The position numbers and the translations under genes were made by a program. From the NCBI GenBank assembly GCA_016188355.1, contig JACPHY010000001.1, positions 111,505 to 175,504 of the forward strand: a DNA stretch of 64,000 nt, given 5' to 3'. The DNA is from Candidatus Uhrbacteria bacterium (lineage in GTDB: Bacteria; Patescibacteriota; Patescibacteriia; JACPHY01). Numbering within the stretch: position 1 is the stretch's first letter; every line of letters begins with the position of its first letter. This document shows, piece by piece, positions 2,410 to 64,000 of this stretch. A model generated the notes under the pieces. That model was not told the origin of the DNA. It worked only from the letters and a program-made list of their open reading frames with translations, and searched no databases.

Positions 2410-3879
2410 ATGGAATACACTTCCGTTACTGACCTTGCTGCAGGATTGCGTGCGCGATCCTATTCGGCAGAAGAATTGACCCGTTCCTACATTGATCGGA
2501 TCGCGGCGCGCGATTCGCGTGTGGGTGCGTACCTCCATCGCATGGAGGAGGATGCGCTGATGACGGCACGTCGTGTGGATGCCATGATTGCGTGCGGGGA
2601 GGAGCTCATGCCGCTCGCGGGTATTCCGATGGCAGTGAAAGATGTGCTGCTTGTGGCCGGACATCCGGCAACTGCGGCATCGAAAATGCTCGAACCATAC
2701 GTAGCGGCGTACGATGCCACGGTAGTTGCGAAGCTCAAACAGCAGGACGCCGTACTCCTCGGGAAAACGAATTGTGATGAATTTGCGATGGGTTCGTCCA
2801 CCGAGAATTCGGCATACCAGAAAACGAGCAATCCTTGGGATGTGGCCGTAGTTCCCGGCGGATCCTCCGGCGGTTCTGCGGCGGCGGTTGCAGCAGATTT
2901 GTGTGCGGCATCGCTCGGTACAGACACTGGTGGATCGGTGCGTCAGCCGGCGAGTCTCTGTGGAGTCGTGGGTCTCAAGCCGACGTACGGCGCGGTGTCG
3001 CGGTACGGGCTTATTGCCATGGCGTCGAGTTTTGATGTGGTGGGTCCATTTACGCGGACCGTCGCCGATGCGCGGCTGGTGTTTGCGGCGATCGCCGGGA
3101 GCGATCCGAAGGATGCGACCACGCAGGAGCCGCGGACCACCGGCCAGCGGCCACCGGCCGTACGCGGACTTCGGGTGGGCATTCCGAAGGAGTATTTTGC
3201 TTCCGGTATCGATCCGGATGTGGAAGCGGCGGTGCGCGAAGCGATTCGGGTGATCGAGGGATTGGGGTGCACGATCGAAGAGGTTTCGCTCCCGCACACG
3301 CAGTATGGGCTTGCCGTGTATTACGTGCTCATGCCGTCGGAGGTCTCTGCGAACCTCGCGCGTTTTGACGGGATTCGGTACGGCGCATCGCTCGCCCGCA
3401 CGGAGCCGCACGCCGCCTTGCCGCGCGTGTACACGGAAACACGCACCCAGGGATTCGGTCCGGAGACGCGTCGTCGGATCATGCTCGGCACGTACGCGCT
3501 CTCGAAGGGATATGCGGATAAGTACTATACACGCGCACTCGCGGTGCGTGCGTTGCTCAAGCAGGATTTTGAGCGCGCATTTGCGAGCGTGGATGTGCTC
3601 CTAACGCCCACCGCGCCAACTCCCGCGTGGTCGTTCGGTGCGAAAACGGACGATCCGTTGCAGATGTACCTCTCCGATGTGTTTACGGTTTCCGCAAACG
3701 TCGTCGGGATTCCGGGTATGTCCGTCCCCTGTGGGTTTGTGGAACGGAGCGGCAAGCGCTTGCCCGTAGGTCTCCAGCTGCTCGGTCGTTGGTTTGACGA
3801 GTCCACGCTATTTGATCTGGGAGAGGCGTATCAGGAAGCCACGACTTGGCATCGGGAGCGACCGCCGCTAGCATCGTAG
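2410..3879 (+). CDS. gatA: Glutamyl-tRNA(Gln) amidotransferase subunit A
   Basis: Amidase signature GGSSGGSAAAVAA, KDV...G motif, length 489 aa. No gatB is adjacent. Confidence 0.92.
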   Translation: MEYTSVTDLAAGLRARSYSAEELTRSYIDRIAARDSRVGAYLHRMEEDALMTARRVDAMIACGEELMPLAGIPMAVKDVLLVAGHPATAASKMLEPYVAAYDATVVAKLKQQDAVLLGKTNCDEFAMGSSTENSAYQKTSNPWDVAVVPGGSSGGSAAAVAADLCAASLGTDTGGSVRQPASLCGVVGLKPTYGAVSRYGLIAMASSFDVVGPFTRTVADARLVFAAIAGSDPKDATTQEPRTTGQRPPAVRGLRVGIPKEYFASGIDPDVEAAVREAIRVIEGLGCTIEEVSLPHTQYGLAVYYVLMPSEVSANLARFDGIRYGASLARTEPHAALPRVYTETRTQGFGPETRRRIMLGTYALSKGYADKYYTRALAVRALLKQDFERAFASVDVLLTPTAPTPAWSFGAKTDDPLQMYLSDVFTVSANVVGIPGMSVPCGFVERSGKRLPVGLQLLGRWFDESTLFDLGEAYQEATTWHRERPPLAS

Positions 3880-6666: not shown

Positions 6667-7433
6667 TGGATATGCCCATGGAATCGGTAACTACGATTTG
6701 GCTCGGGCCGGTTCCGGTGCACGTGTGGGGTGTTTTCGTAGCGGCGGGCATGATGGTGGCTTTGGCGATTGCCGTACGGCGAGCGCCTCGGGTGGGTATT
6801 CCGGCAGAGCGAGTACTAGATATTTCGATCGGTATCCTCATCGCGGGGTTTGTGGGTGCGCGATTGGGGCATGTGACGTTCTACGAACCGTCCTATTATC
6901 TGGCTGCTCCGATCGAAATATTGAAAATTTGGAACGGCGGCCTCTCCTCGTTTGGGGCATTTTTGATTGCCACCATTGTTGGGGCGCTGCTCGTTCGGAG
7001 GAGCGGAATTTCACTGCGCCGCTTCAGCGATCTCATATTTCGGGCGCTTCCCTTTGGATTTATCATTGGCCGTTTGGGGTGTCATATCACCCGGATGCAC
7101 CCGGGTCCGATCGGCTCGGGGTGGGGCTACTTCCCGTTTCCGGATGGATTCACGCGACTCGACCTCGGACTCCTGGAGGCGGTGCTCTGGGCGGTCATTG
7201 CTATTCCCGCGCTATTCGTGGATCGTGCAGATGCACATCCCGGGCGTGTGACGGCAGTGGTGATTGGTATGTACGCATTGGGTCGATTTGGCCTCGATTT
7301 TCTTCGTGCGATGGACACACGATATTTCGGACTCACGCCGGCACAGTATGGATGCATGGTGCTCCTCGTCATCGCTGTCGCATGGGGGCGGGGCGCCTGG
7401 GTGGCGGGTGCTCGATCAGGGAAGAGTGTGTGA
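6666..7433 (+). CDS. lgt: Prolipoprotein diacylglyceryl transferase
   Basis: Multi-TM protein with the IIGRLGCHITRMHPG signature region. The start is ambiguous (Met at 6660/6666/6672/6678); the 6666 start overlaps the upstream stop (TAATG). Confidence 0.8.
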   Translation: MDMPMESVTTIWLGPVPVHVWGVFVAAGMMVALAIAVRRAPRVGIPAERVLDISIGILIAGFVGARLGHVTFYEPSYYLAAPIEILKIWNGGLSSFGAFLIATIVGALLVRRSGISLRRFSDLIFRALPFGFIIGRLGCHITRMHPGPIGSGWGYFPFPDGFTRLDLGLLEAVLWAVIAIPALFVDRADAHPGRVTAVVIGMYALGRFGLDFLRAMDTRYFGLTPAQYGCMVLLVIAVAWGRGAWVAGARSGKSV

Positions 7434-7437
7434 TCGT

Positions 7438-8964
7438 ATGTGGAATTACCGCATCACCACCTTCCTGACCGGCGCTGCCGTCATGATTGCGGAGATTGGA
7501 GCGGCGCGTGCGTTGGCGCCGTATTTTGGAACGTCCATTGTGGTGTGGACGAATATTATTGGGAGCATTCTCGTGGCGTTGAGCGTGGGGTACTGGATCG
7601 GTGGTCGATGGGCGGAACGTTGTCCCGATCGGCGGTGTTTAGGCGGAATCATCATGAGTGCGGGTGCCTTGCTCCTCCTCCCGGGTTTCGCCACTCCCCT
7701 GATTGCGCGCGGCATGATCGGGGATACGCCATGGTTGGGTAGTGGATTTACTGCGTTGCTTTTCGGATCACTCTTGGTCATCGTGTTGCTGTTCGTGGTG
7801 CCGATCGCGCTCCTGGGTATGGTGAGTCCGTTCGTGCTCAAGCTAGCGGCGCGGGAACGGAGTGACATTGGCGCAATCGCGGGGCAACTGTATGCCATTT
7901 CCACGATTGGTAGTCTGGTGGGCACATTTCTCCCGACACTCGTCCTTCTGCCCACTCTGGGAACGCGACGCACGGTGCTCGCTGCGGCAACGTTGTTGTT
8001 GGTGCTTGGCGCGGCACAGTTTGTCCGTCGGCGCGTCTCGGTCGTGGCTGTGGGTGTGGTCGGTTTGTTGCTCATCGCGCTTCCGGAACATCCTCCGGCA
8101 TGGTGGGGGGGAGGAACGGTGATTGCGGCGGTGGATTCGCCTTACCAATTCATTCGCGTGGTGGATCATCCGCGCATTGCGTACGGATCTCCTGGTCGTG
8201 CACTCGTGTTCAATGAAGGGTTGAGCACGCAATCGCTCGCGGTACGTTCCGGGGATGCGCTCCAAGGATATTTTGCGGTCGCGGCTGCGTTGCCGGGCGC
8301 ATTCGCGGAGCAGCCCGTATCAGTACTCATTCTCGGGAATGCAGGTGGGACGGTCGGCGCAGCGATGCAGCAGTGGTTTCCGAAGGGCGCGGTGGAGATT
8401 ACCGGTGTGGAGATTGACCCCGCCGTCACCGCGCTGGCGCGCGCGACGTTTGCTCATTTTCCGGAGTATCCGATTGCGCATACGGACAGCCGTGTGTTTT
8501 TGGAACGGAACCAGCGGCAGTACGACCTCATTCTGGTGGATGCGTACACGAATCAGTTGACGATTCCGTCGCACCTGGTGACGCGGGAGTTCTTCCAGCT
8601 CCTTCAACGCCGTCTGACGCCGCGTGGGTTTATTGCGATGAATATCAATGCGCCGCGCGCGGATTCTCCGTTACTGCAAATCCTTCTGGCGACGGTTGCC
8701 GATGTTTTTCCGCGGGTGACGGTAGGACATGCGGGGACGGCGTGGAATTATCTCGTGACGGGAAGCGATGCGCCGATTGCGTGGGAGCGACTCCCGACGG
8801 TGGCGATGCCGGAACCGTCACGCGCCAGCGTGCATGCGTATCTCGCACAGCAGGCGGTCGTGCATCGCAATGATGTCGCACGAAAGCTCACAGATGATTG
8901 GGCACCGATTGAACTCATGACGGACGCGGAAGTGTTCACGGCTCTGCGAATGCACCGCGAGTAA
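7438..8964 (+). CDS. Spermidine-synthase-family (PABS) aminopropyltransferase/methyltransferase fused to an N-terminal multi-TM domain
   Basis: Seven or more TM helices, then a Rossmann region ILGNAGGTVG...VEITGVEIDPAV...YDLILVDAYT. The ATG at 7438 lies inside the longer ORF 7264..8964. Confidence 0.75.
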   Translation: MWNYRITTFLTGAAVMIAEIGAARALAPYFGTSIVVWTNIIGSILVALSVGYWIGGRWAERCPDRRCLGGIIMSAGALLLLPGFATPLIARGMIGDTPWLGSGFTALLFGSLLVIVLLFVVPIALLGMVSPFVLKLAARERSDIGAIAGQLYAISTIGSLVGTFLPTLVLLPTLGTRRTVLAAATLLLVLGAAQFVRRRVSVVAVGVVGLLLIALPEHPPAWWGGGTVIAAVDSPYQFIRVVDHPRIAYGSPGRALVFNEGLSTQSLAVRSGDALQGYFAVAAALPGAFAEQPVSVLILGNAGGTVGAAMQQWFPKGAVEITGVEIDPAVTALARATFAHFPEYPIAHTDSRVFLERNQRQYDLILVDAYTNQLTIPSHLVTREFFQLLQRRLTPRGFIAMNINAPRADSPLLQILLATVADVFPRVTVGHAGTAWNYLVTGSDAPIAWERLPTVAMPEPSRASVHAYLAQQAVVHRNDVARKLTDDWAPIELMTDAEVFTALRMHRE

Positions 8965-15937: not shown

Positions 15938-16501
15938 CTATGGGCTATCGACGTGGTGATTGCGAATGGCAATTTTTGCGCGTCGTACGAATGTTTTCAC
16001 GGTATTCGTGGGCACAGAAATGATACCCGCGATTTCGTCGTATGTATATCCCTGCCAGTAGTGGAGGAGGAGCACCTCGCGATAGATGGGTCGCAAACCA
16101 GCGAGGGCGCGCTCGATATCGAGTTGTGCAGCGAGTTGCAGCGGCGATCGGAAGGCATCGGCATGGGTGTCGGGAGGGTCCTCATTGCTGTCGGGATCAT
16201 CGAACGCTAAATACACGCGGTGGCGAGCGGATTTTCGAAACCAGTCGTAGACTACGTGCCTGGCGATCGTGAACATCCACGCGCCAAATGGACGTCCTGG
16301 TTCGTATGTGTGGATGTGCTGATAGAGTTTCAGGAATGTTTCCTGTGTGAGCTCCGCGGCATCATCGCGATTATTCACCATGCGAATAATGAATCCGTAG
16401 ATGCGATGTTCATAATGCGACACGATATGCGTAAACGCATGCATATCTCCGCGTTTTGCGGCGATGAGGATTTCTGTGGGAGGGGGAGGGAGTGGTGCCA
16501 T
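15938..16501 (-). CDS. ECF-family RNA polymerase sigma-70 factor
   Basis: Region 2 (ELTQETFLKLYQHIHTYEPGRPFGAWMFTIARHVVYDWFR) and region 4 HTH (LLLHYWQGYTYDEIAGIISVPTNTVKTFVRRA). Confidence 0.85.
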   Translation of the reverse strand: MAPLPPPPTEILIAAKRGDMHAFTHIVSHYEHRIYGFIIRMVNNRDDAAELTQETFLKLYQHIHTYEPGRPFGAWMFTIARHVVYDWFRKSARHRVYLAFDDPDSNEDPPDTHADAFRSPLQLAAQLDIERALAGLRPIYREVLLLHYWQGYTYDEIAGIISVPTNTVKTFVRRAKIAIRNHHVDSP

Positions 16502-16908
16502 AGCGGCGTCGCGTGCGAGCGCCGGCCGTAGATGCCACAGAGTGGTGCGTCACATGAATTGTCGGTGGGTTGGGGCAGTCCTGCGGTGCGTTCGTGATGC
16601 GTGGCGAGATGTTCCGCAATGCAGACTCAGAGCGTTGCGTGGCATTCTGAAACCGTGACCGGATGCCGCGCGTATGACCTTCTGAGACTCGTCGAGGATA
16701 GCACAAGGCGAGTACTCGGTAAAGGTCGACGCGTACGGCATGAGTGACGCAGGCGCCGTGCTTCCGGAGTATGTGCGCATGATTCGTCGATGCATGGATC
16801 GCGAGTGAAGCACGCATATGGCGGAGCGCATGCACGCACTGCTTTTGTGATATGGCATTCGTCACTTCCGAACGATACCCCGCAACGACGGGATGGCATT
16901 GGGTTGCC

Positions 16909-22903: not shown

Positions 22904-22991
22904 GGTGGGGTCGCATAGTGGTCGAGTGCGCTCGCTTGGAAAGCGAGTAGACCGCAAGGTCTCGCGGGTTCGAATCCCGCCCCCACCGCCA
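22904..22991 (+). tRNA. tRNA-Ser (anticodon GGA), type II with a long variable arm, CCA encoded
   Basis: Acceptor GGTGGGG/CCCCACC, anticodon stem CTCGC/GCGAG with loop TTGGAAA, long variable arm, T-loop GGTTCGAATCC, discriminator G + CCA. Confidence 0.85.
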
Positions 22992-31500: not shown

Positions 31501-31576
31501 TCCGGGGTAGCTCAACGGTAGAGCATCTCGCTGTTAACGAGATGGTTCTGGGTTCGAATCCCAGCCCCGGAGCCAT
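31501..31576 (+). tRNA. tRNA-Asn (anticodon GTT), CCA encoded
   Basis: Acceptor TCCGGGG/CCCCGGA, D-arm GCTC-AACGGTA-GAGC, anticodon loop CTGTTAA, T-loop GGTTCGAATCC, discriminator G + CCA. Confidence 0.85.
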
Positions 31577-56284: not shown

Positions 56285-57012
56285 ATATGCACACGCTCAT
56301 CTTCGACATTGAAACGGTCGGCGAGGATTTTGATGCGATGGATGCGACCACACAGGAGGTGATGACGAAGTGGGTGCGGGAGAGTGTTCGGGATGAGGAG
56401 GAGTACACGCAAGAGTTGGCGCGACTGAAGGGACGCCTCGGATTCTCGCCGTTTACAGGTACGATTGTGGCCATCGGCACGCTCGATGCAGATTCTGGGA
56501 AGGGTGGGGTTTATTTTCAAGCACCGGAGAAAGAACCGGAGGTGTTCGAGGAGGATAGTGTGAAATTCGAGCCAATGGACGAACGTCGCATGCTGGAGAA
56601 ATTTTGGGAGGTGGCACAGTACGCACGGGTGTTGGTGGGATTCAATAGTCGCGGATTTGATGCGCCATTTTTGATCATGCGTTCTGCGGTGCACCGTATC
56701 ACGCCGACGGTTCCGCTTATGGCGGGGCGCTATCTCTACCAACAGCGTGGAGTGAAGCATGTGGACCTCATGGATCAACTGCAGTTTTATGGCTCCGTGT
56801 GGAAGCGTCCGAATCTCCATCTCGTCACCCGTGCCTTTGGCATCGAGAGCCCCAAAGCTGATGGGGTGACGGGTGATGATGTTGCGCCATTATTTCAGTC
56901 GGGTGACTACGAGACGATTGCACGATACAATCTCCGTGACCTCCGCGCGACGCGCGAGCTTTACCGTGTCTGGCAGTCGTGCATTCATCCGGCGACGGGG
57001 GAACCGTACTGA
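56281..57012 (+). CDS. RNase H-like 3'-5' exonuclease related to the PolB exonuclease domain (YprB/PF13482-like), paralog 2, immediately upstream of recQ
   Basis: Exo I FDIET, Exo II FNSRGFDAPFL and Exo III YNLRDLRAT motifs. Collinear with 5998..6666. Confidence 0.7.
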   Translation: MNMHTLIFDIETVGEDFDAMDATTQEVMTKWVRESVRDEEEYTQELARLKGRLGFSPFTGTIVAIGTLDADSGKGGVYFQAPEKEPEVFEEDSVKFEPMDERRMLEKFWEVAQYARVLVGFNSRGFDAPFLIMRSAVHRITPTVPLMAGRYLYQQRGVKHVDLMDQLQFYGSVWKRPNLHLVTRAFGIESPKADGVTGDDVAPLFQSGDYETIARYNLRDLRATRELYRVWQSCIHPATGEPY

Positions 57013-57013
57013 T

Positions 57014-59230
57014 ATGCAGGGATCGCGTGCATTGCGCGATGCGCGTGCAGTGCTCAAGGAGGTGTTTGGATACGCCAAGTTTCGTCCATATCAGGGCGAA
57101 GCCGTTGCTCGCGTGTGCGAGGGGAAGTCGGTGCTCGTGGTGCTCCCGACCGGGGGTGGAAAATCGCTCGTGTACCAGGTACCGGCACTCGTACGGGAGG
57201 GGTGCGCACTCGTGTTTTCTCCGCTCATTTCCCTCATGCGTGATCAGGTGGATCAGCTGCGCGCGGCTGGCGTTCGTGCGGCGTACTACAATTCCACGCT
57301 GACGAGTGCGGAACGAGCAGCGGTGTATGCGCAGGCACTTCGGGGGGAGCTCGATCTCCTCTACATTGCACCGGAGGGATTTTTTACGGATCAATTTCAG
57401 GAAGTGTTGGGGCAGCTCCGCATCGCGCTCGTTGCCGTGGATGAAGCGCATTGCATTTCGGAATGGGGGCATGAGTTCCGTCCGGAGTATCGTCAGCTCC
57501 GTTCGCTCCGTGCGCGCTTCCCGGACGTGCCGATCGTTGCGTGTACTGCAACGGCAACGGCGCCCGTGCGTGCGGATATCGTGCAGCAGTTGGGCGTTCC
57601 CGACATGGAGGTGTTCGTGGGGAGCTTTGAGCGGGAAAATCTCACGCTCCAGATTGTGACGAAGCAAGACGTGGTGGCGCAGGTCGCCGAAATGCTCACC
57701 TGTCACCGTGACGAATCCGCGATTGTGTATGCGGCAACGCGGAAGGCAGTGGAACATCTTGCCGAAGCACTGCAGGAAAAAGGGTTTTCGGCATTGCCGT
57801 ATCACGCCGGCATGGATGCGGTCACCCGCGACGCGCACCAGCGTGCGTTCGCGAACGATGAGGTGCTCTGCATGGTGGCGACGGTTGCGTTCGGTATGGG
57901 GATTGATAAGTCCAATGTGCGCACCGTGATCCATGCGAATTTGCCGAAATCAATCGAAGGGTACTACCAAGAGGTGGGACGCGCGGGGCGTGATGGACTG
58001 CCGTCGACTTGTATTGCATTTGTGTCCAATGGCGACATTGCGACGCAGCAGTATCTCATTGACCAGGCAGAGAGCGTAGATGAGCGCGCGCGGGCGCAGC
58101 AGCAGCTCGCACATGTAGTCCGGTTCGTGCGGAATCTCGAATGTCGTCACGCGGCGATTTTACGGTACTTCGGGGAGGAGCGGGGTGATTGGACGTGTGG
58201 CAATCGATGCGATGCGTGTTGCACGGACCAGATTACGGAACGCGACATGACGGAGGAGGTGCAGAAGGTGTTGTCTGCGGTTGCACGGATCGAGCGCACG
58301 GGATTTCCGGTGGGTGTGGGCAAGCTCACGCAGGTGCTCGCGGGTTCCGCCGCGCAGGAGGTGGAGCGATTTCAGCATCTCTCCACGTTTGGTGTGCTCC
58401 AGGGGAAAACGAAGTCTGCCATTCGCGAGATGATCGGCGTGAGTATTGATCGCGGTTTCCTGCAGCAGGAGACCGGAACGTACCCCGTCCTTCGCCTCGG
58501 CGCAGGAGCACCGGCGGTACTTCGCGGCGAAACGCGTGTGGTGGTCCGTGTGCGGCACACGCCGGAGGCGGCATCCGGAGCGGAGGCGGCGCAGGACGCG
58601 GCGCTTTTCGACCTCCTGCGCCATTGGCGCGCCGCGGAAGCGAAGCGGAGCAGTGTGCCGCCCTATGTGATTTGCTCGGATGCGGTGCTTCGTGCGCTCG
58701 CGACGTACCTGCCGCTCACCCGAGAGGATCTCCTCCGCATTCCTGGAATTGGTGCCGTGCGTGCGGAGCGATTCGGATCCGCCGTACTCGACGTGCTCCA
58801 ACAGTACGTGCGTGAGCATGGCCTCTCCTCGCGGATGCCGCCCACTGCATCGGTGATGACGAGTTCCAAGACGCGATCGCATGTGTCCCGTAGCGCCGCG
58901 CGTGGCAGCGATACCGTCGCCGCGACCATCGCGCTCCACCAGGAAGGGAAGTCCGTCGCCGAGATTGCATCGCATCGCGCATTGAATCCGCGCACCATCG
59001 TGACCCACCTCGCCGAGGGATTCCGTGATGGCCGTATTGCGAGCGATGATCTGCGTCGGTTCGTTCCCCAAGATCGCGAGCACGTCATTCGCGACGCCTT
59101 CGATCGCGTCGGCTCTTCCGTGGCACTGAATCCCGTGAAGCAGCTCCTCCCGATCGATTATTCGTACGACGATCTCCACTTCGTGCGGGCAGTCATGGAA
59201 CGAGAACGGGATGGGGGCGGTCACCAATGA
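57014..59230 (+). CDS. recQ: ATP-dependent DNA helicase RecQ (with RQC and HRDC regions)
   Basis: Walker A PTGGGKSL, DEAH box VDEAHCISEWGHEFR, helicase C motifs, Zn-binding Cys cluster (CGNRCDACC), and a C-terminal HRDC-like domain. Starts 2 nt after the exonuclease stop. Confidence 0.92.
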   Translation: MQGSRALRDARAVLKEVFGYAKFRPYQGEAVARVCEGKSVLVVLPTGGGKSLVYQVPALVREGCALVFSPLISLMRDQVDQLRAAGVRAAYYNSTLTSAERAAVYAQALRGELDLLYIAPEGFFTDQFQEVLGQLRIALVAVDEAHCISEWGHEFRPEYRQLRSLRARFPDVPIVACTATATAPVRADIVQQLGVPDMEVFVGSFERENLTLQIVTKQDVVAQVAEMLTCHRDESAIVYAATRKAVEHLAEALQEKGFSALPYHAGMDAVTRDAHQRAFANDEVLCMVATVAFGMGIDKSNVRTVIHANLPKSIEGYYQEVGRAGRDGLPSTCIAFVSNGDIATQQYLIDQAESVDERARAQQQLAHVVRFVRNLECRHAAILRYFGEERGDWTCGNRCDACCTDQITERDMTEEVQKVLSAVARIERTGFPVGVGKLTQVLAGSAAQEVERFQHLSTFGVLQGKTKSAIREMIGVSIDRGFLQQETGTYPVLRLGAGAPAVLRGETRVVVRVRHTPEAASGAEAAQDAALFDLLRHWRAAEAKRSSVPPYVICSDAVLRALATYLPLTREDLLRIPGIGAVRAERFGSAVLDVLQQYVREHGLSSRMPPTASVMTSSKTRSHVSRSAARGSDTVAATIALHQEGKSVAEIASHRALNPRTIVTHLAEGFRDGRIASDDLRRFVPQDREHVIRDAFDRVGSSVALNPVKQLLPIDYSYDDLHFVRAVMERERDGGGHQ

Positions 59231-59266
59231 AATCACCGTCCCGCGGTGAGCGGGACGGTGTGAGAT

Positions 59267-59671
59267 CTACGGGCGGCGCTGTGCACGGACCGGCAGCTCC
59301 ATGACGCGCTGTGGCGCAATAAGCCTCCGGACGAACGTGAATGTGTGAGTATCTTCGGAACGTTCTTCCTCGAACGAGGTGCCGATGAGGTGTGCGAATA
59401 GGGTCACCAGCTGTCGGCGCTCGCGACGAGATAGGTGTCCCAGAAATCGCATGACCGGTTCTGGTGTGCCGCACCAGGGAGTGGCACAGGTGAAGGAGAC
59501 GGTTGTGTCGTCGTCCGTATCGAGTCGGAGAATCGTGCACGGATTCCGCGTCCCGCAGGTGCTGTCCGCGACGGCATCAAGATGGAATGTGATGCGCTTG
59601 ACGTTGTAGATGTAACCGATGTCAGGGAGCGGAGAATCTCCTGCGTGCGTGTGTGTGGTTTTTGGTGCCAC
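59267..59671 (-). CDS. Hypothetical protein
   Basis: 134-aa ORF convergent with recQ. No motif. Weak. Confidence 0.3.
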   Translation of the reverse strand: MAPKTTHTHAGDSPLPDIGYIYNVKRITFHLDAVADSTCGTRNPCTILRLDTDDDTTVSFTCATPWCGTPEPVMRFLGHLSRRERRQLVTLFAHLIGTSFEEERSEDTHTFTFVRRLIAPQRVMELPVRAQRRP

Positions 59672-59822
59672 GGGCGCTCCTTTCCCAAATGCGAGACCCA
59701 GTGTCCCGCATGGACTGCGCCCACCCTGTCATGGATGCAGCGGCACGTCAAGGACCATCGCCGGCGGATGTGGTAACGGAAACGAAATGCCGCCCGCGGG
59801 AGCGAGCGGCTTGGACATCTGG

Positions 59823-60149
59823 TTACGAGGAGCGCGATGGCAATGTGGGATCCGCGGCTCCGGTCTCAGGGATTTTTGGTGCGTCCTGATAGAAACCCTT
59901 CCAGACGAGTCTGCGTGGCTCTTGGAAGAACACGCCCTCTGGTTGATTGCTCGGAGCTGCGGTGGACGTGTGCGGGATGCGTTCTGGTCCGGGGTACGAC
60001 CCGAGTTTCGGCATCCATGATCCCAAAATTTCGTCCGCGCGTTCTCGGTCGTTTGCGTACACTGTTGCCGTAATGGCGTAGCGCTCGATGAAGTACCCGT
60101 CGGTGTCCGTGGTGTACTCCACGAGAAATGTGGTGTCCCATCGTCGCAT
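59823..60149 (-). CDS. Hypothetical small protein divergent from dinB
   Basis: Internal Met chosen from ORF 59823..60272 to avoid overlapping the dinB start. No motif. Weak. Confidence 0.25.
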   Translation of the reverse strand: MRRWDTTFLVEYTTDTDGYFIERYAITATVYANDRERADEILGSWMPKLGSYPGPERIPHTSTAAPSNQPEGVFFQEPRRLVWKGFYQDAPKIPETGAADPTLPSRSS

Positions 60150-60191
60150 GGGTGATCCTCCGTATGGGGTGGCAATGGACGAGATACGTGT

Positions 60192-61613
60192 ATGTTGACA
60201 CAGGATATGACGAACGTCCAGCGCATCATCATGCATGTCGACATGGACAGTTTCTTTGCATCCGTCGAGCAACAGGCGAACCCGCGATTGCGGGGAAAGC
60301 CGATCGCCGTGAGCGGTGACCCAAAATCACGGACCGTCGTTGCGGCGGCATCGAAAGAGGCAAAGCGATTCGGGGTGAAATCCGCAATGACCATTGGAGA
60401 GGCGCGACGATTATGCCCGAAGATCCAGTTTGTGCTCGGAGATCCAGATAAATATGTCTCGGTGGCGCAGCGGATCGTTCGTGTGTTTCAGGAGTACACG
60501 CCGGACGTCGAGGTTGCCTCGATTGATGAGGCATTTCTTGAGATGACGGGATGGTCAACGCATTTTGCTTGCGGGGATTGCGTGCGGACGGGAGCGGCAC
60601 GTGGTGATGGGGAGGAGTCGCGTGCGTGGTGTGGTGCGGTTCGGATGATCGCAGAGCTCCGCCGATGCCTGTACCGGGAAGTGGGGGAGTGGATCACCTG
60701 TTCGGTGGGTGTTGCGCAAAATAAGCGTCTTGCGAAATTGGCTTCTGATTTTCGTAAGCCGAACGGACTCGTGCTCGTGTATCCGCATGCGGGAGTAGGA
60801 GCGCATCCGATGCCGGATGTCGTGTGTGCGGTGACACGCGAAACGCTCCTGGCCTCCCTGCAGCTTCGCGATTTGGGTGGCATAGGACCGCGTATTGAGG
60901 AGCGGCTTCGGCGCATGGGCATTGCTACGATCGCGCAACTTGCGGGAACCCCGATTACCGTCCTCCGCGATGCGTTTGGCGTGTATGGCAACGAACTCCA
61001 TGACATGGCCATGGGGCATGATGTCCGTCCGGTGAGCGCGAACGATGCAGATCCGAAGTCGATGGGACATTCGGTGACGTTGCCTCGGGATCTCCGGACG
61101 GTGGAGGAGATACGCCCGGTCGTGGAAGAGCTCGCAGAGCGGGTAACAGCGCGGTTGCGGCGCGATGGATTTCGGGGATCGCTCATTCGATTGACCATGC
61201 GGTATGGCGACTTCACTGACGCGCACGAACAGAGGACGATTTCCGAGGCAACCAACGATGGGCGCCGTGTCGCGCGTGCGGTCATGGATATGCTTGCGGC
61301 AAGACTGATGCGATTGCCGGTGCGTCTCGTGGGGATCAGCGTGGGTCATCTTGTTCGGGTAACCGCAACCCAGGTTTCGTTATTCGCAGAAGATGTGCGC
61401 TGGCAGTCCGCGATCGCCGCTATGGATGCGGCCAATCATCGTCACGGTGCGTGGACCGTCCTCCGCGCGTCACTCCTGGGGCATCCCCGGGTCCTTCGCA
61501 GGGTTGCCGCAGCATTTCAATCGACCGCCCATCTCCGTGATGCAGTGGATGCGGATGGAATTGTAGGTGAGGATCGCGACGATCCCTCTGTAGGGACAGA
61601 TGGACAAAAATAG
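60192..61613 (+). CDS. dinB: DNA polymerase IV (Y-family translesion polymerase)
   Basis: HVDMDSFFASVEQ, SGD...SKEAKRFGV and IDEAFL motifs, with little-finger domain length. A C-terminal extension brings it to 473 aa. Confidence 0.9.
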   Translation: MLTQDMTNVQRIIMHVDMDSFFASVEQQANPRLRGKPIAVSGDPKSRTVVAAASKEAKRFGVKSAMTIGEARRLCPKIQFVLGDPDKYVSVAQRIVRVFQEYTPDVEVASIDEAFLEMTGWSTHFACGDCVRTGAARGDGEESRAWCGAVRMIAELRRCLYREVGEWITCSVGVAQNKRLAKLASDFRKPNGLVLVYPHAGVGAHPMPDVVCAVTRETLLASLQLRDLGGIGPRIEERLRRMGIATIAQLAGTPITVLRDAFGVYGNELHDMAMGHDVRPVSANDADPKSMGHSVTLPRDLRTVEEIRPVVEELAERVTARLRRDGFRGSLIRLTMRYGDFTDAHEQRTISEATNDGRRVARAVMDMLAARLMRLPVRLVGISVGHLVRVTATQVSLFAEDVRWQSAIAAMDAANHRHGAWTVLRASLLGHPRVLRRVAAAFQSTAHLRDAVDADGIVGEDRDDPSVGTDGQK

Positions 61614-62476: not shown

Positions 62477-62611
62477 TCGTGTGGACCTCATTGCGGGGCA
62501 ACGAGTTCCGTCGCAGCGCGCGTCGCGGACATCGATGCGTCCCGCATGCGTGGGTGCGTTCCTGCTCCTACCCTGCGTACTCGGGACGGATATCATGACG
62601 TCACCGGTCGT

Positions 62612-63718
62612 ATGCTTGCCGCAGTAGTGATTGCTGCTGCTCTTGCGGTTACCGGAGAGGTTCCGATGCCGGTTCGTATTCCGGGCGGCATCGCATCTCC
62701 GGTGATCGTGGATCATGTCCGCGCGGTGTACCTGACGTCTGGTGCCGCGGGGAGTGATCAATTCCCGCGATATCTTGCATTGCTCAGAACCACCACGATC
62801 AATGCGCTGGTGGTCGATGTGAAAGATGCGAATGGTCGACTCGCGTTTCGTCCCGAATCTCCGTCGTTATCCGCACTGGCGCCCGCGCATCCGACAATCA
62901 GCAATCTTCGGGATCGGGTAGCGGATATCCATGCGAACGGCGGTCTCGCGATCGCGCGGATTCCGGTATTTCAGGATTCGTGGTTTGCGGAACAGACTCC
63001 GACAGAAGCGATTCGGAGCACATCAGGAGCGTTGTGGCGCGATCATATCGGACAGGCATGGCTCGACCCCGCATCGGAACGCGTATGGAACTACGCCATC
63101 GATCTCGCGCGCGAAGCTGCTGCGTTTGGGTTTGATGAGGTAAATTTTGACTACATCCGCTTCCCGTCAGATGGGACATTGGCACGCGCCACGTATCCTC
63201 GATGGAATCGGAAGACTCCTCGTCGTGCGGTGATTGCTGCATTCGCCCGTGCGGTGGATCAGGGCGTTCGTGCGCAGGGGATTCGGACGTCTGCGGACCT
63301 GTTCGGCTTAGTGTTCTGGGCGAAAAATGATTTGGGCATTGGTCAATATCTCGAGGATCTCGCCCCACATTTCGACGTGCTCGCGCCCATGGTATACCCC
63401 TCGCACTATGGGAAAGGATTTTTGGGATTCGCGAATCCTGCAGTGGAGCCGTTTGCAGTCATTTCGGAAACCCTCCAGAAAGGTCGGCAGCGACTCCAGC
63501 GACTTCCCAAGAACGATCAGCCCGCAGTCCGTCCCTGGCTGCAGGATTTTCGGATGGGAGCTCCCTATGATGCGGCGATGATTCGCGAGGAAATGCGCGC
63601 CGCTGCGGATCAGGGATCGGTCGGATGGATGCTGTGGAATCCATTGAGTCGGTACACGGACGGTGCGATTGCATTGCCTTCGGTAGCGGAAACGATATTT
63701 CGCTCCTTTAAAAAATGA
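62612..63718 (+). CDS. Putative secreted glycoside-hydrolase-like TIM-barrel protein (GHL/DUF4015-like)
   Basis: Signal/TM start, with spaced acidic/aromatic motifs (VVDVKDANG, WLDP, FDEVNFDYIRFP, VYPSHY, GWMLWNP) reminiscent of the family. Assignment is tentative. Confidence 0.45.
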   Translation: MLAAVVIAAALAVTGEVPMPVRIPGGIASPVIVDHVRAVYLTSGAAGSDQFPRYLALLRTTTINALVVDVKDANGRLAFRPESPSLSALAPAHPTISNLRDRVADIHANGGLAIARIPVFQDSWFAEQTPTEAIRSTSGALWRDHIGQAWLDPASERVWNYAIDLAREAAAFGFDEVNFDYIRFPSDGTLARATYPRWNRKTPRRAVIAAFARAVDQGVRAQGIRTSADLFGLVFWAKNDLGIGQYLEDLAPHFDVLAPMVYPSHYGKGFLGFANPAVEPFAVISETLQKGRQRLQRLPKNDQPAVRPWLQDFRMGAPYDAAMIREEMRAAADQGSVGWMLWNPLSRYTDGAIALPSVAETIFRSFKK

Positions 63719-63788
63719 CCACAGGAGACACACAGATTCTCCACTTGTTTTCCGCAATAGGACTACATGTAGCGAAACCAGGGAGCCC

Positions 63789-63817
63789 TTGACGAGGGTT
63801 TGGATGATTTTTATACT
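63789..63817 (+). promoter_or_regulatory. Consensus-like sigma-70 promoter (TTGACG - 17 nt - TATACT) driving the downstream small RNA candidate
   Basis: -35 TTGACG at 63789-63794 and -10 TATACT at 63812-63817, with an exactly 17-nt spacer. No ORF of at least 60 aa follows. Confidence 0.6.
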
Positions 63818-63823
63818 GCGCGT

Positions 63824-63991
63824 GCCACGTCATCCAGCGTAGTCCCTCGGCCATAACGCGTAGCCCAAATACCACTGGTAGTGGCTACTGCAACCCTTAC
63901 TAAAATTAGGGTCCGAGGGCACACATGACGCGGTACTACCCCCGCACCTCTCCCCGACAAAGAACGGGGAGTGGGGTGCGGCTTTTTTGAT
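63824..63991 (+). ncRNA. Candidate small structured RNA of about 170 nt (long imperfect closing stem with internal hairpins, 6S-RNA-like architecture), ending in an intrinsic terminator
   Basis: There is no protein-coding ORF of at least 60 aa. A 5' arm (CACGUCAU...GUCCCUCGG) pairs with a 3' arm (CCGAGGGC...AUGACGCG). Internal hairpins include GUAGCC/GGCUAC, CCACU-GGU-AGUGG and ACCCU-...-AGGGU. The terminal GC hairpin (CCCCG...CGGGG) is followed by UUUUUUGAUUUUUU. Confidence 0.5.
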
Positions 63992-64000
63992 TTTTTAGAC

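Follow-up and report, generated by a model that had tools for sequence, protein, structure and literature searches.

The stretch analysed here (hereafter the window) comprises 64,000 nucleotides (nt) of a metagenome-derived Candidatus Uhrbacteria genome (GenBank assembly GCA_016188355.1, contig JACPHY010000001.1, positions 111,505 to 175,504 of the forward strand). Its last long open reading frame (ORF), at 62546-63718, encodes a putative glycoside hydrolase of the DUF4015 family (Pfam, E = 2.6e-89), which is identical to HYV74_00810 at NCBI, and no coding sequence follows it in the window. The segment beyond this gene contains a gene for a small non-coding RNA that is served by a promoter of its own, folds into a conserved Y shape and belongs to a narrow, uncultured group of Uhrbacteria. 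The RNA is about 165 nt long and consists of a Y-shaped 5' domain (helices P1-P4, 63822-63936), a linker, a 3' hairpin (P5) and a U run; all features described for the window lie on the plus strand. A preliminary description of this stretch had already pointed out the absence of an ORF after the last coding sequence, and the comparison agrees with it, as no ORF of any length that is conserved across the RNA homologues was found on either strand.

Ten further distinct loci carry the same RNA immediately after the DUF4015 gene; together with the window they give 11 distinct sequences. To reach these loci, relatives of the DUF4015 protein (55-71% identity) were traced to their contigs, which are designated here by L numbers, and a pattern scan of a metagenome added L056 and L057. 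The homologues are located at L048 4871-5027, L050 3354-3512, L051 2868-3063, L052 4170-4355, L053 4223-4378, L057 3706-3864, L061 1454-1610, L063 4307-4468, L064 3978-4134 and L066 3700-3858. The 11 sequences score 98-154 bits with the covariance model built for the RNA (E-values of 1e-18 to 3e-30) and share a mean pairwise identity of 0.69 (range 0.54-0.93). Within the intergenic region of ~450 nt, the loci resemble each other only in the RNA and in the promoter boxes of the mraZ gene, which is described below.

The distribution of the RNA appears to be narrow. It is not present in the spacer between DUF4015 and mraZ in L054 and L067, where the gene order is the same, and it was not found by nhmmer, with either a single sequence or a profile, in 46 mraZ loci of other lineages of the candidate phyla radiation (CPR), including two other Uhrbacteria. 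The covariance model, which was run on local DNA only, yielded no new homologue in 59 sources totalling 489 kb, and BLAST comparisons with Escherichia coli genomes and phage records gave no match to the RNA. The single metagenome scan, for which a 20-nt degenerate pattern was used, returned two true matches and four chance matches in coding regions; the pattern was too strict in that it demanded TGA, while three homologues carry TGG. The 11 sequences are thus a lower bound on the distribution and, as far as could be searched, the RNA is restricted to a high-GC subclade of Candidatus Uhrbacteria.

A consensus scan of positions 63000-64000 identified a single sigma-70-type promoter, TTGACG-17-TATACT at 63789-63817, which matches the consensus at 10 of 12 positions and is the near-consensus promoter reported in the preliminary description. 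The arrangement is repeated at an equal distance from P1 in the 10 other homologues, i.e. TTGACN, a spacer of 16-17 nt and TATACT precede the RNA in 11/11 loci; the -10 hexamer TATACT is invariant and the spacer sequence is variable. Transcription is expected to start at about 63822-63825. The -35 hexamer forms part of a short hairpin that is followed by a T-rich spacer and was flagged as terminator-like (63783-63801 in the window, 4834-4851 in L048 and ~4270-4290 in L063); this hairpin may serve as the terminator of the DUF4015 transcript and thereby overlap the promoter of the small RNA.

The 177-nt segment at 63819-63995 folds to -76.9 kcal/mol, compared with -54.4 +/- 4.4 kcal/mol in 200 dinucleotide shuffles (z = -5.08), and none of the shuffled sequences folds as well. 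The Y-shaped domain is closed by helix P1, which is formed by the strands at 63822-63833 (GUGCCACGUCAU, with a conserved A.C mismatch at 63827) and 63925-63936 (AUGACGCGGUAC) and is supported by both the predicted fold and the alignment of the homologues. An internal loop separates P1 from P2. Its 5' side (63834-63843) reads CCAGCGUAGU in the window and GGUGGU in 6/11 homologues, and conservation is limited to this side, the 3' side (63920-63924) being variable in the alignment. This loop, whose 5' and 3' sides measure 3-15 nt and 5-11 nt, respectively, across the homologues, is the sole internal loop of the Y domain and is flanked by a 12-bp helix and a 6-bp helix, the latter running to the three-way junction. 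P2 consists of CCCUCGG (63844-63850) paired with CCGAGGG (63913-63919). The first arm, P3 (63858-63891; GCGUAGCC...GGCUACUGC), contains one bulged nucleotide, varies in the length of its apex and is separated from the second arm by a single A at 63892, which is an invariant alignment column (A71). The second arm, P4 (63893-63912; ACCC...GGGU), carries an A-rich loop of 10-19 nt that varies in sequence and length, and the 3' strand of P2 abuts it with no junction nucleotide. The long closing stem of the preliminary description closes only the 5' ~115 nt and not the whole RNA.

The Y domain is followed by the single-stranded linker UACCC (63937-63941), which is invariant, is the only sizeable invariant unpaired segment and lies within the invariant block GGUACUACCCCCGC. 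The GC-rich 3' hairpin P5 (63942-63981) comprises 15 bp, with an invariant base (CCGCAC/GUGCGG) and an upper stem of the type CUCUCC/GGAGNG; its apex is variable, and the whole hairpin measures ~35-75 nt across the homologues. In the window, P5 is directly followed by CUUUUUUGAUUUUUU within the U-rich tail CUUUUUUGAUUUUUUA (63982-63997), and this combination of GC hairpin and U tract is predicted to act as an intrinsic terminator in this Uhrbacteria genome; it escaped the consensus scan owing to an internal loop in the hairpin. The preliminary description had taken the hairpin for the terminator of the RNA itself, and a U run does follow it in the window, but the hairpin is also a conserved domain of the RNA, and a U run occurs directly after it in only 5/11 homologues and is not directly adjacent in 6/11. 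Termination is therefore not the sole role of P5. Pairing of GGUGGU in the 5' side of the internal loop with ACUACC at the linker, as a pseudoknot or switch, was tried and rejected: it is no better than with composition-shuffled loops in 9/11 sequences and is out of register in the alignment.

RNAalifold and the model-based alignment concur on helices P1-P5. In the alignment of the 11 homologues (A5), 97.1% of the pair cells contain standard pairs, whereas this value falls to 28-44% if the 3' partners are displaced by 1-3 columns. Changes on both sides affect nine of the 34 pairs (14 cells), and the observed values are reached in 0/500 shuffles. Two of these covarying pairs are in P1, where 99% of the cells of the 10 aligned pairs are paired and the changes are C-G to U-A and G-C to A-U; two are among the six aligned pairs of P2; four are among the eight pairs of P3; and one, an A-U to G-C change, is among the four aligned pairs of P4. 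The six base pairs at the base of P5 are 100% paired and show no covariation. When folded singly, the Y domains of the homologues adopt the same architecture, with z-scores of -0.8 to -4.9 (at or below -2.4 in 9/11). Invariant unpaired positions are few, namely a G ahead of P2, the lone A joining P3 to P4, and the linker; the apices of P3, P4 and P5 vary freely, both in length and in sequence. Compensatory changes beyond those of the controls, the general mark of a conserved structured RNA, are thus present in these 11 related sequences. The proposal that the stretch contains a free-standing, promoter-bounded structured small RNA is borne out by the folding energy and by the recurrence of the promoter, the fold and the sequence blocks at the 10 other loci. 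No known family was recognized: cmscan with Rfam 15 gave no hit overlapping the RNA at the gathering score in the whole window, or at E <= 10 on 63650-64000 and nine homologous loci, and this includes the cis-regulatory families.

The DNA beyond position 64000 was read from the Logan contig L001, which matches the window and runs past its end (window position = L001 position + 56571). Directly after the U run of P5, L001 contains a second intrinsic terminator at 7429-7450 (equivalent to window positions 64000-64021), in which CCCCGCC and GGCGGGG form 7 G-C pairs around a loop and are followed by GATTTTTAT. A second terminator is likewise found in L064 (4157-4173), and a further hairpin with a U run is located 10-100 nt after P5 in the homologous loci examined. 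The next gene in L001 is mraZ, followed by rsmH. A promoter-like sequence for mraZ, TTGCTG-17-TAAAAT (9/12 match; read from the sequence and unlisted by the scan), lies ~100 nt past the second terminator, and separate mraZ promoters downstream of the RNA are also present in L050, L064 and L048. These predicted signals show an RNA that is transcriptionally insulated from the downstream mraZ operon. The gene mraZ is next downstream, in the same orientation, in 8/11 loci, although in L052 it follows only after three ORFs; of the loci not counted, L051 has rplJ with an L10 leader in place of mraZ, and the contigs L063 and L057 ended or were unchecked downstream.

Several features of the mraZ region were recorded in passing. 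The mraZ promoter, of the form TTGNNN-17-TA[A/G]AAT, is set in 4-6 direct GTGG(G/A) repeats with a spacing of ~10-11 nt (L001 7534-7600, equivalent to window positions 64105-64171; L048 5116-5170; L050 3636-3700; L064 4245-4315; and L061 ~1689-1760), and the repeats are conserved in all Uhrbacteria loci examined, including those lacking the RNA. MraZ binds GTGG direct repeats, and these repeats look like candidate MraZ autoregulatory boxes. The automatic gene call for mraZ (L001 7442-8044, 200 amino acids) is ~55 codons too long and spans the mraZ promoter region in its overlong part; since the homologues begin with (M/V)FIGEY, the true start is placed at L001 7601-7610, with the end at 8044. 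In L051, the segment upstream of rplJ (3167-3378) matched the ribosomal protein L10 leader (RF00557) below threshold (29.8 bits versus a gathering score of 44), and the L10 leaders of CPR bacteria appear to be divergent from the Rfam model.

The interpretation that we favour, and to which we give about an even chance, is that this is an independent, lineage-restricted small RNA (sRNA) of an unclassified family that acts in trans through its folded structure. Transcription would begin at the near-consensus promoter, 1-3 nt upstream of P1, and the transcript would fold into the ~115-nt Y domain, with P1 and P2 forming a stem that contains the conserved internal loop, and P3 and P4 forming two arms on a tight three-way junction. 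The invariant 5-nt linker UACCC and the rigid, GC-rich P5 would follow, and transcription would stop either at the U run that borders P5 or at a further terminator, 10-100 nt beyond it. In trans, the folded RNA would then bind a protein, or serve as its scaffold or decoy, and a ligand might take the place of the protein. This shape-based mode of action is suggested because the helix ends, the junction nucleotides, the linker and the P5 base are invariant while the three apical loops, which antisense RNAs normally use, drift. A protein partner (in a ribonucleoprotein or with the RNA as a scaffold or decoy) or a small ligand is, we infer, the most economical reading, and the RNA is probably neither a 6S-type RNA polymerase mimic nor a leader of the downstream gene.

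Several observations weigh against the proposal of an sRNA acting through its shape. Because the P5 base and the outer P1 pairs (UGCC/GGUA) do not vary, they provide no covariation evidence, and the covariation sample consists of 11 sequences that are all syntenic and come from related genomes, with a shuffle control that retains the phylogenetic signal. An antisense seed would also be compatible with the longest invariant block, GGUACUACCCCCGCACC, which is rich in pyrimidines and in part single-stranded. None of the neighbouring genes, which encode the DUF4015 glycoside hydrolase-like protein, a Zincin_1 protein, DinB and the products of mraZ-rsmH, points to a partner or ligand, and the position of mraZ downstream of the RNA in 8/11 loci may reflect regulatory ties to the dcw genes for division and the cell wall. 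The ends and abundance of the transcript, moreover, are predicted from sequence signals.

Among the other explanations, a base-pairing sRNA is possible, albeit improbable. The invariant block GGUAC-UACCC-CCGCACCUCUCC, exposed at the linker and at a breathing P5, would pair with purine-rich, Shine-Dalgarno-like sites in mRNAs, and the Y domain and P5 would serve to stabilize and terminate the transcript. The candidate seed is the longest invariant stretch of the RNA, and the lack of covariation in P1 and P5 would be explained if the opposite helix strands were kept merely for pairing. The layout of the present RNA resembles that of many trans-acting bacterial sRNAs whose seeds are C-rich, for example RsaE/RoxS, which combine a 5' structured domain with a short C-rich single strand and a 3' terminator hairpin. 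However, only 5-6 nt of the invariant block are predicted to be unpaired, a pure antisense RNA requires neither conserved junction nucleotides nor a tight three-way junction, and a scan of 65 kb gave no convincing target, its best duplex (16461-16510, -32.6 kcal/mol) being antisense to the start of a minus-strand ORF. A 9-nt complementarity to the codons for K-Y-R in mraZ was dropped as an antisense link, as the same codons are present in genomes lacking the RNA. There is also a rather slim chance that the RNA represents a new functional class specific to the CPR, i.e. a sensor of a ligand or protein in trans, a non-canonical stand-in for a housekeeping regulatory RNA (for example, a 6S-like polymerase regulator of unrelated structure) or a ribonucleoprotein component for envelope or division control in organisms with such reduced genomes; the three-way junction, the linker (UACCC) and the base of P5, all invariant, would make up its recognition surface.

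The position of mraZ in 8/11 loci, together with a three-way junction that has conserved junction nucleotides and precedes a terminator-like hairpin, as is typical of riboswitches, could also be taken to indicate a cis-acting leader or attenuator of mraZ-rsmH-ftsL, with the Y domain as the sensor, P5 as the terminator and read-through as an additional source of mraZ expression. The preliminary description had raised the related possibility of a leader in the terminator-ON state for a gene beyond the window. Such a leader is unlikely because the second terminator (L001 and L064) and the separate mraZ promoter with its GTGG repeats intervene, and because rplJ, with its own leader, lies downstream in L051. 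Moreover, three ORFs intervene in L052, L054 and L067 keep the DUF4015-mraZ order without the RNA, P5 lacks a direct U run in more than half of the homologues, and no conserved antiterminator was found, the 3' strand of P1 and the 5' strand of P5 sharing only a 4-bp GCGG/CCGC option that is lost in L052. The Rfam search at E <= 10 likewise gave no match to a riboswitch or leader family, the mraW motif included. The 6S-like label of the preliminary description, according to which the RNA would sequester the sigma-70 RNA polymerase holoenzyme as a mimic of an open promoter, has to be abandoned in all probability. The strong, constitutive-looking promoter, the length of ~165-180 nt and the lack of an ORF fit this label, and no paper was found that pairs 6S RNA with 'candidate phyla radiation' or Patescibacteria, so that an unrecognized analogue is conceivable. 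A 6S-type RNA is nevertheless very unlikely: neither RF00013, 6S-Flavo nor any other 6S-like model matched at E <= 10, and the 5' end pairs with a nucleotide at about position 115 and not with the 3' end, so that a three-way junction and a self-contained hairpin in the 3' third of the RNA take the place of an extended rod with a large central bubble.

It is extremely unlikely that the RNA is a divergent copy of a universal RNA, whether 5S ribosomal RNA (rRNA), signal recognition particle (SRP) RNA with an Alu-like 5' domain, a fragment of transfer-messenger RNA (tmRNA) or RNase P RNA, or a Y RNA. Its Y domain of ~115 nt has a closing helix and two arms, as in 5S rRNA; with its 5' Y domain ahead of a long hairpin, the RNA also has a topology like that of Bacillus-type SRP RNA; and the motif GGUCCGA, which occurs in eukaryotic Y RNAs, is likewise present here. 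None of the 5S, SRP, tmRNA, RNase P and Y RNA models, however, gave a match at E <= 10 in the window or in nine related loci, and ARAGORN found no transfer RNA (tRNA) or tmRNA in L001 7100-7650. P5 also lacks the loops of SRP domain IV, and its apex is not conserved; SRP RNA and 5S rRNA were rejected on the missing model matches and signature loops. Finally, the RNA is missing from the same site in L054 and L067 and from 46 other CPR loci (local DNA only), and it is therefore a poor fit to an essential universal RNA.

In the surroundings of the RNA gene, a conserved motif of ~25 nt is located at 63730-63755 of the window (ACACAGATTCTCCACTTGTTTTCCGC) and has the form CACAnnTTCTCCAC N6-8 TGCGCA. 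It is also present in L048, L050, L053, L061, L063, L064, L066 and L067. In L048 and the window it directly follows the DUF4015 stop codon, elsewhere it occurs at distances of up to ~130 nt downstream of the stop, and it lies ~55-85 nt upstream of the -10 element of the sRNA. In L051 and L052, it consists of three YCCAC repeats that are ~11 nt apart, and its reverse complement, GTGGAG, is similar to MraZ boxes. The presence of the motif in L067, a locus lacking the RNA, means that it is either part of the DUF4015 3' end or a separate regulatory site. The gene order DinB, Zincin_1, DUF4015, RNA and mraZ is common to most of the clade. A cluster of DNA-damage genes lies upstream of the RNA locus (window 56873-61613, L053 595-2842 and L063 1-2467), with RecQ and DinB (IMS family) in the window, LexA adjoining DinB in relatives and an additional GIY-YIG gene in L063. 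The only other RNA genes in the window are those for tRNA-Ser(GGA) at 22904-22991 and tRNA-Asn(GUU) at 31501-31575. With a GC content of 58-63%, the window is GC-rich for a CPR genome. All 16 4-kb bins of positions 1-64000 have a positive GC skew (0.08-0.18), the cumulative skew rises monotonically, and the stretch is probably part of a single replichore.

The literature search found no report on non-coding RNAs, 6S RNA and other sRNAs included, of the CPR/Patescibacteria or Uhrbacteria. As Rfam 15 contains no match either, the RNA can be regarded as a new family of a familiar general kind, namely the free-standing structured sRNAs of bacteria. Its near-consensus promoter, its invariant junction, linker and hairpin base, its compensatory changes and its retention while DUF4015 diverged to 55-71% identity make it a candidate for a new RNA family suitable for Rfam. 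The narrow range and the lack of an assigned function limit the immediate impact of this finding; the CPR/Patescibacteria are, however, largely uncultured organisms with small genomes, and the RNA provides a concrete start for asking what RNA-based regulation they keep.

The RNA has several features in common with known systems. It shares with 5S rRNA a size of ~115-120 nt and a Y shape in which a terminal helix from two ends carries two arms, but it has no loop C or loop E signatures, RF00001 match at E <= 10 or adjoining rRNA genes, and it carries an extra conserved 3' hairpin. The mraW RNA motif of Actinobacteria (RF01746) is likewise found upstream of the mraZ/mraW(rsmH) cell-division cluster; it differs in its fold, its model gives no match, and the Uhrbacteria RNA is separated from mraZ by terminators and a promoter and is kept beside DUF4015 in L051, where mraZ is not downstream. 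The purine and thiamine pyrophosphate riboswitches with a three-way junction and a terminator resemble the RNA in that a junction closed by P1 is most conserved at the junction itself and, in the window, is followed by a GC hairpin and a U run. They differ from it in that the Uhrbacteria RNA has no competing antiterminator and matches no Rfam aptamer class, its hairpin base is invariant and often has no U tail, and the gene downstream has its own promoter and is not constant. The RNA resembles 6S RNA (RF00013) in its length and its strong promoter, and is likewise non-coding and probably abundant. The covariance model of 6S RNA does not match, however, and the rod and the stem joining the 5' and 3' ends are absent: in 11/11 homologues P1 closes the 5' domain and the 3' 45-60 nt form a separate local hairpin, and the sole internal loop lies between P1 and P2 and not in a central bubble. 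Close parallels are the orphan, lineage-specific structured sRNAs found by comparative genomics in the surveys of Weinberg and Breaker, such as the raiA motif, Chloroflexi-1, Acido-1 and Dictyoglomi-1. The Uhrbacteria RNA differs from these in that it has no sequence or structure match in Rfam 15 and occurs in the CPR/Patescibacteria, but like them it is encoded by a free-standing gene with its own promoter and terminator, has a multi-helix fold with covariation and invariant junction nucleotides, and shows a narrow taxonomic range with neighbouring genes that give no function.

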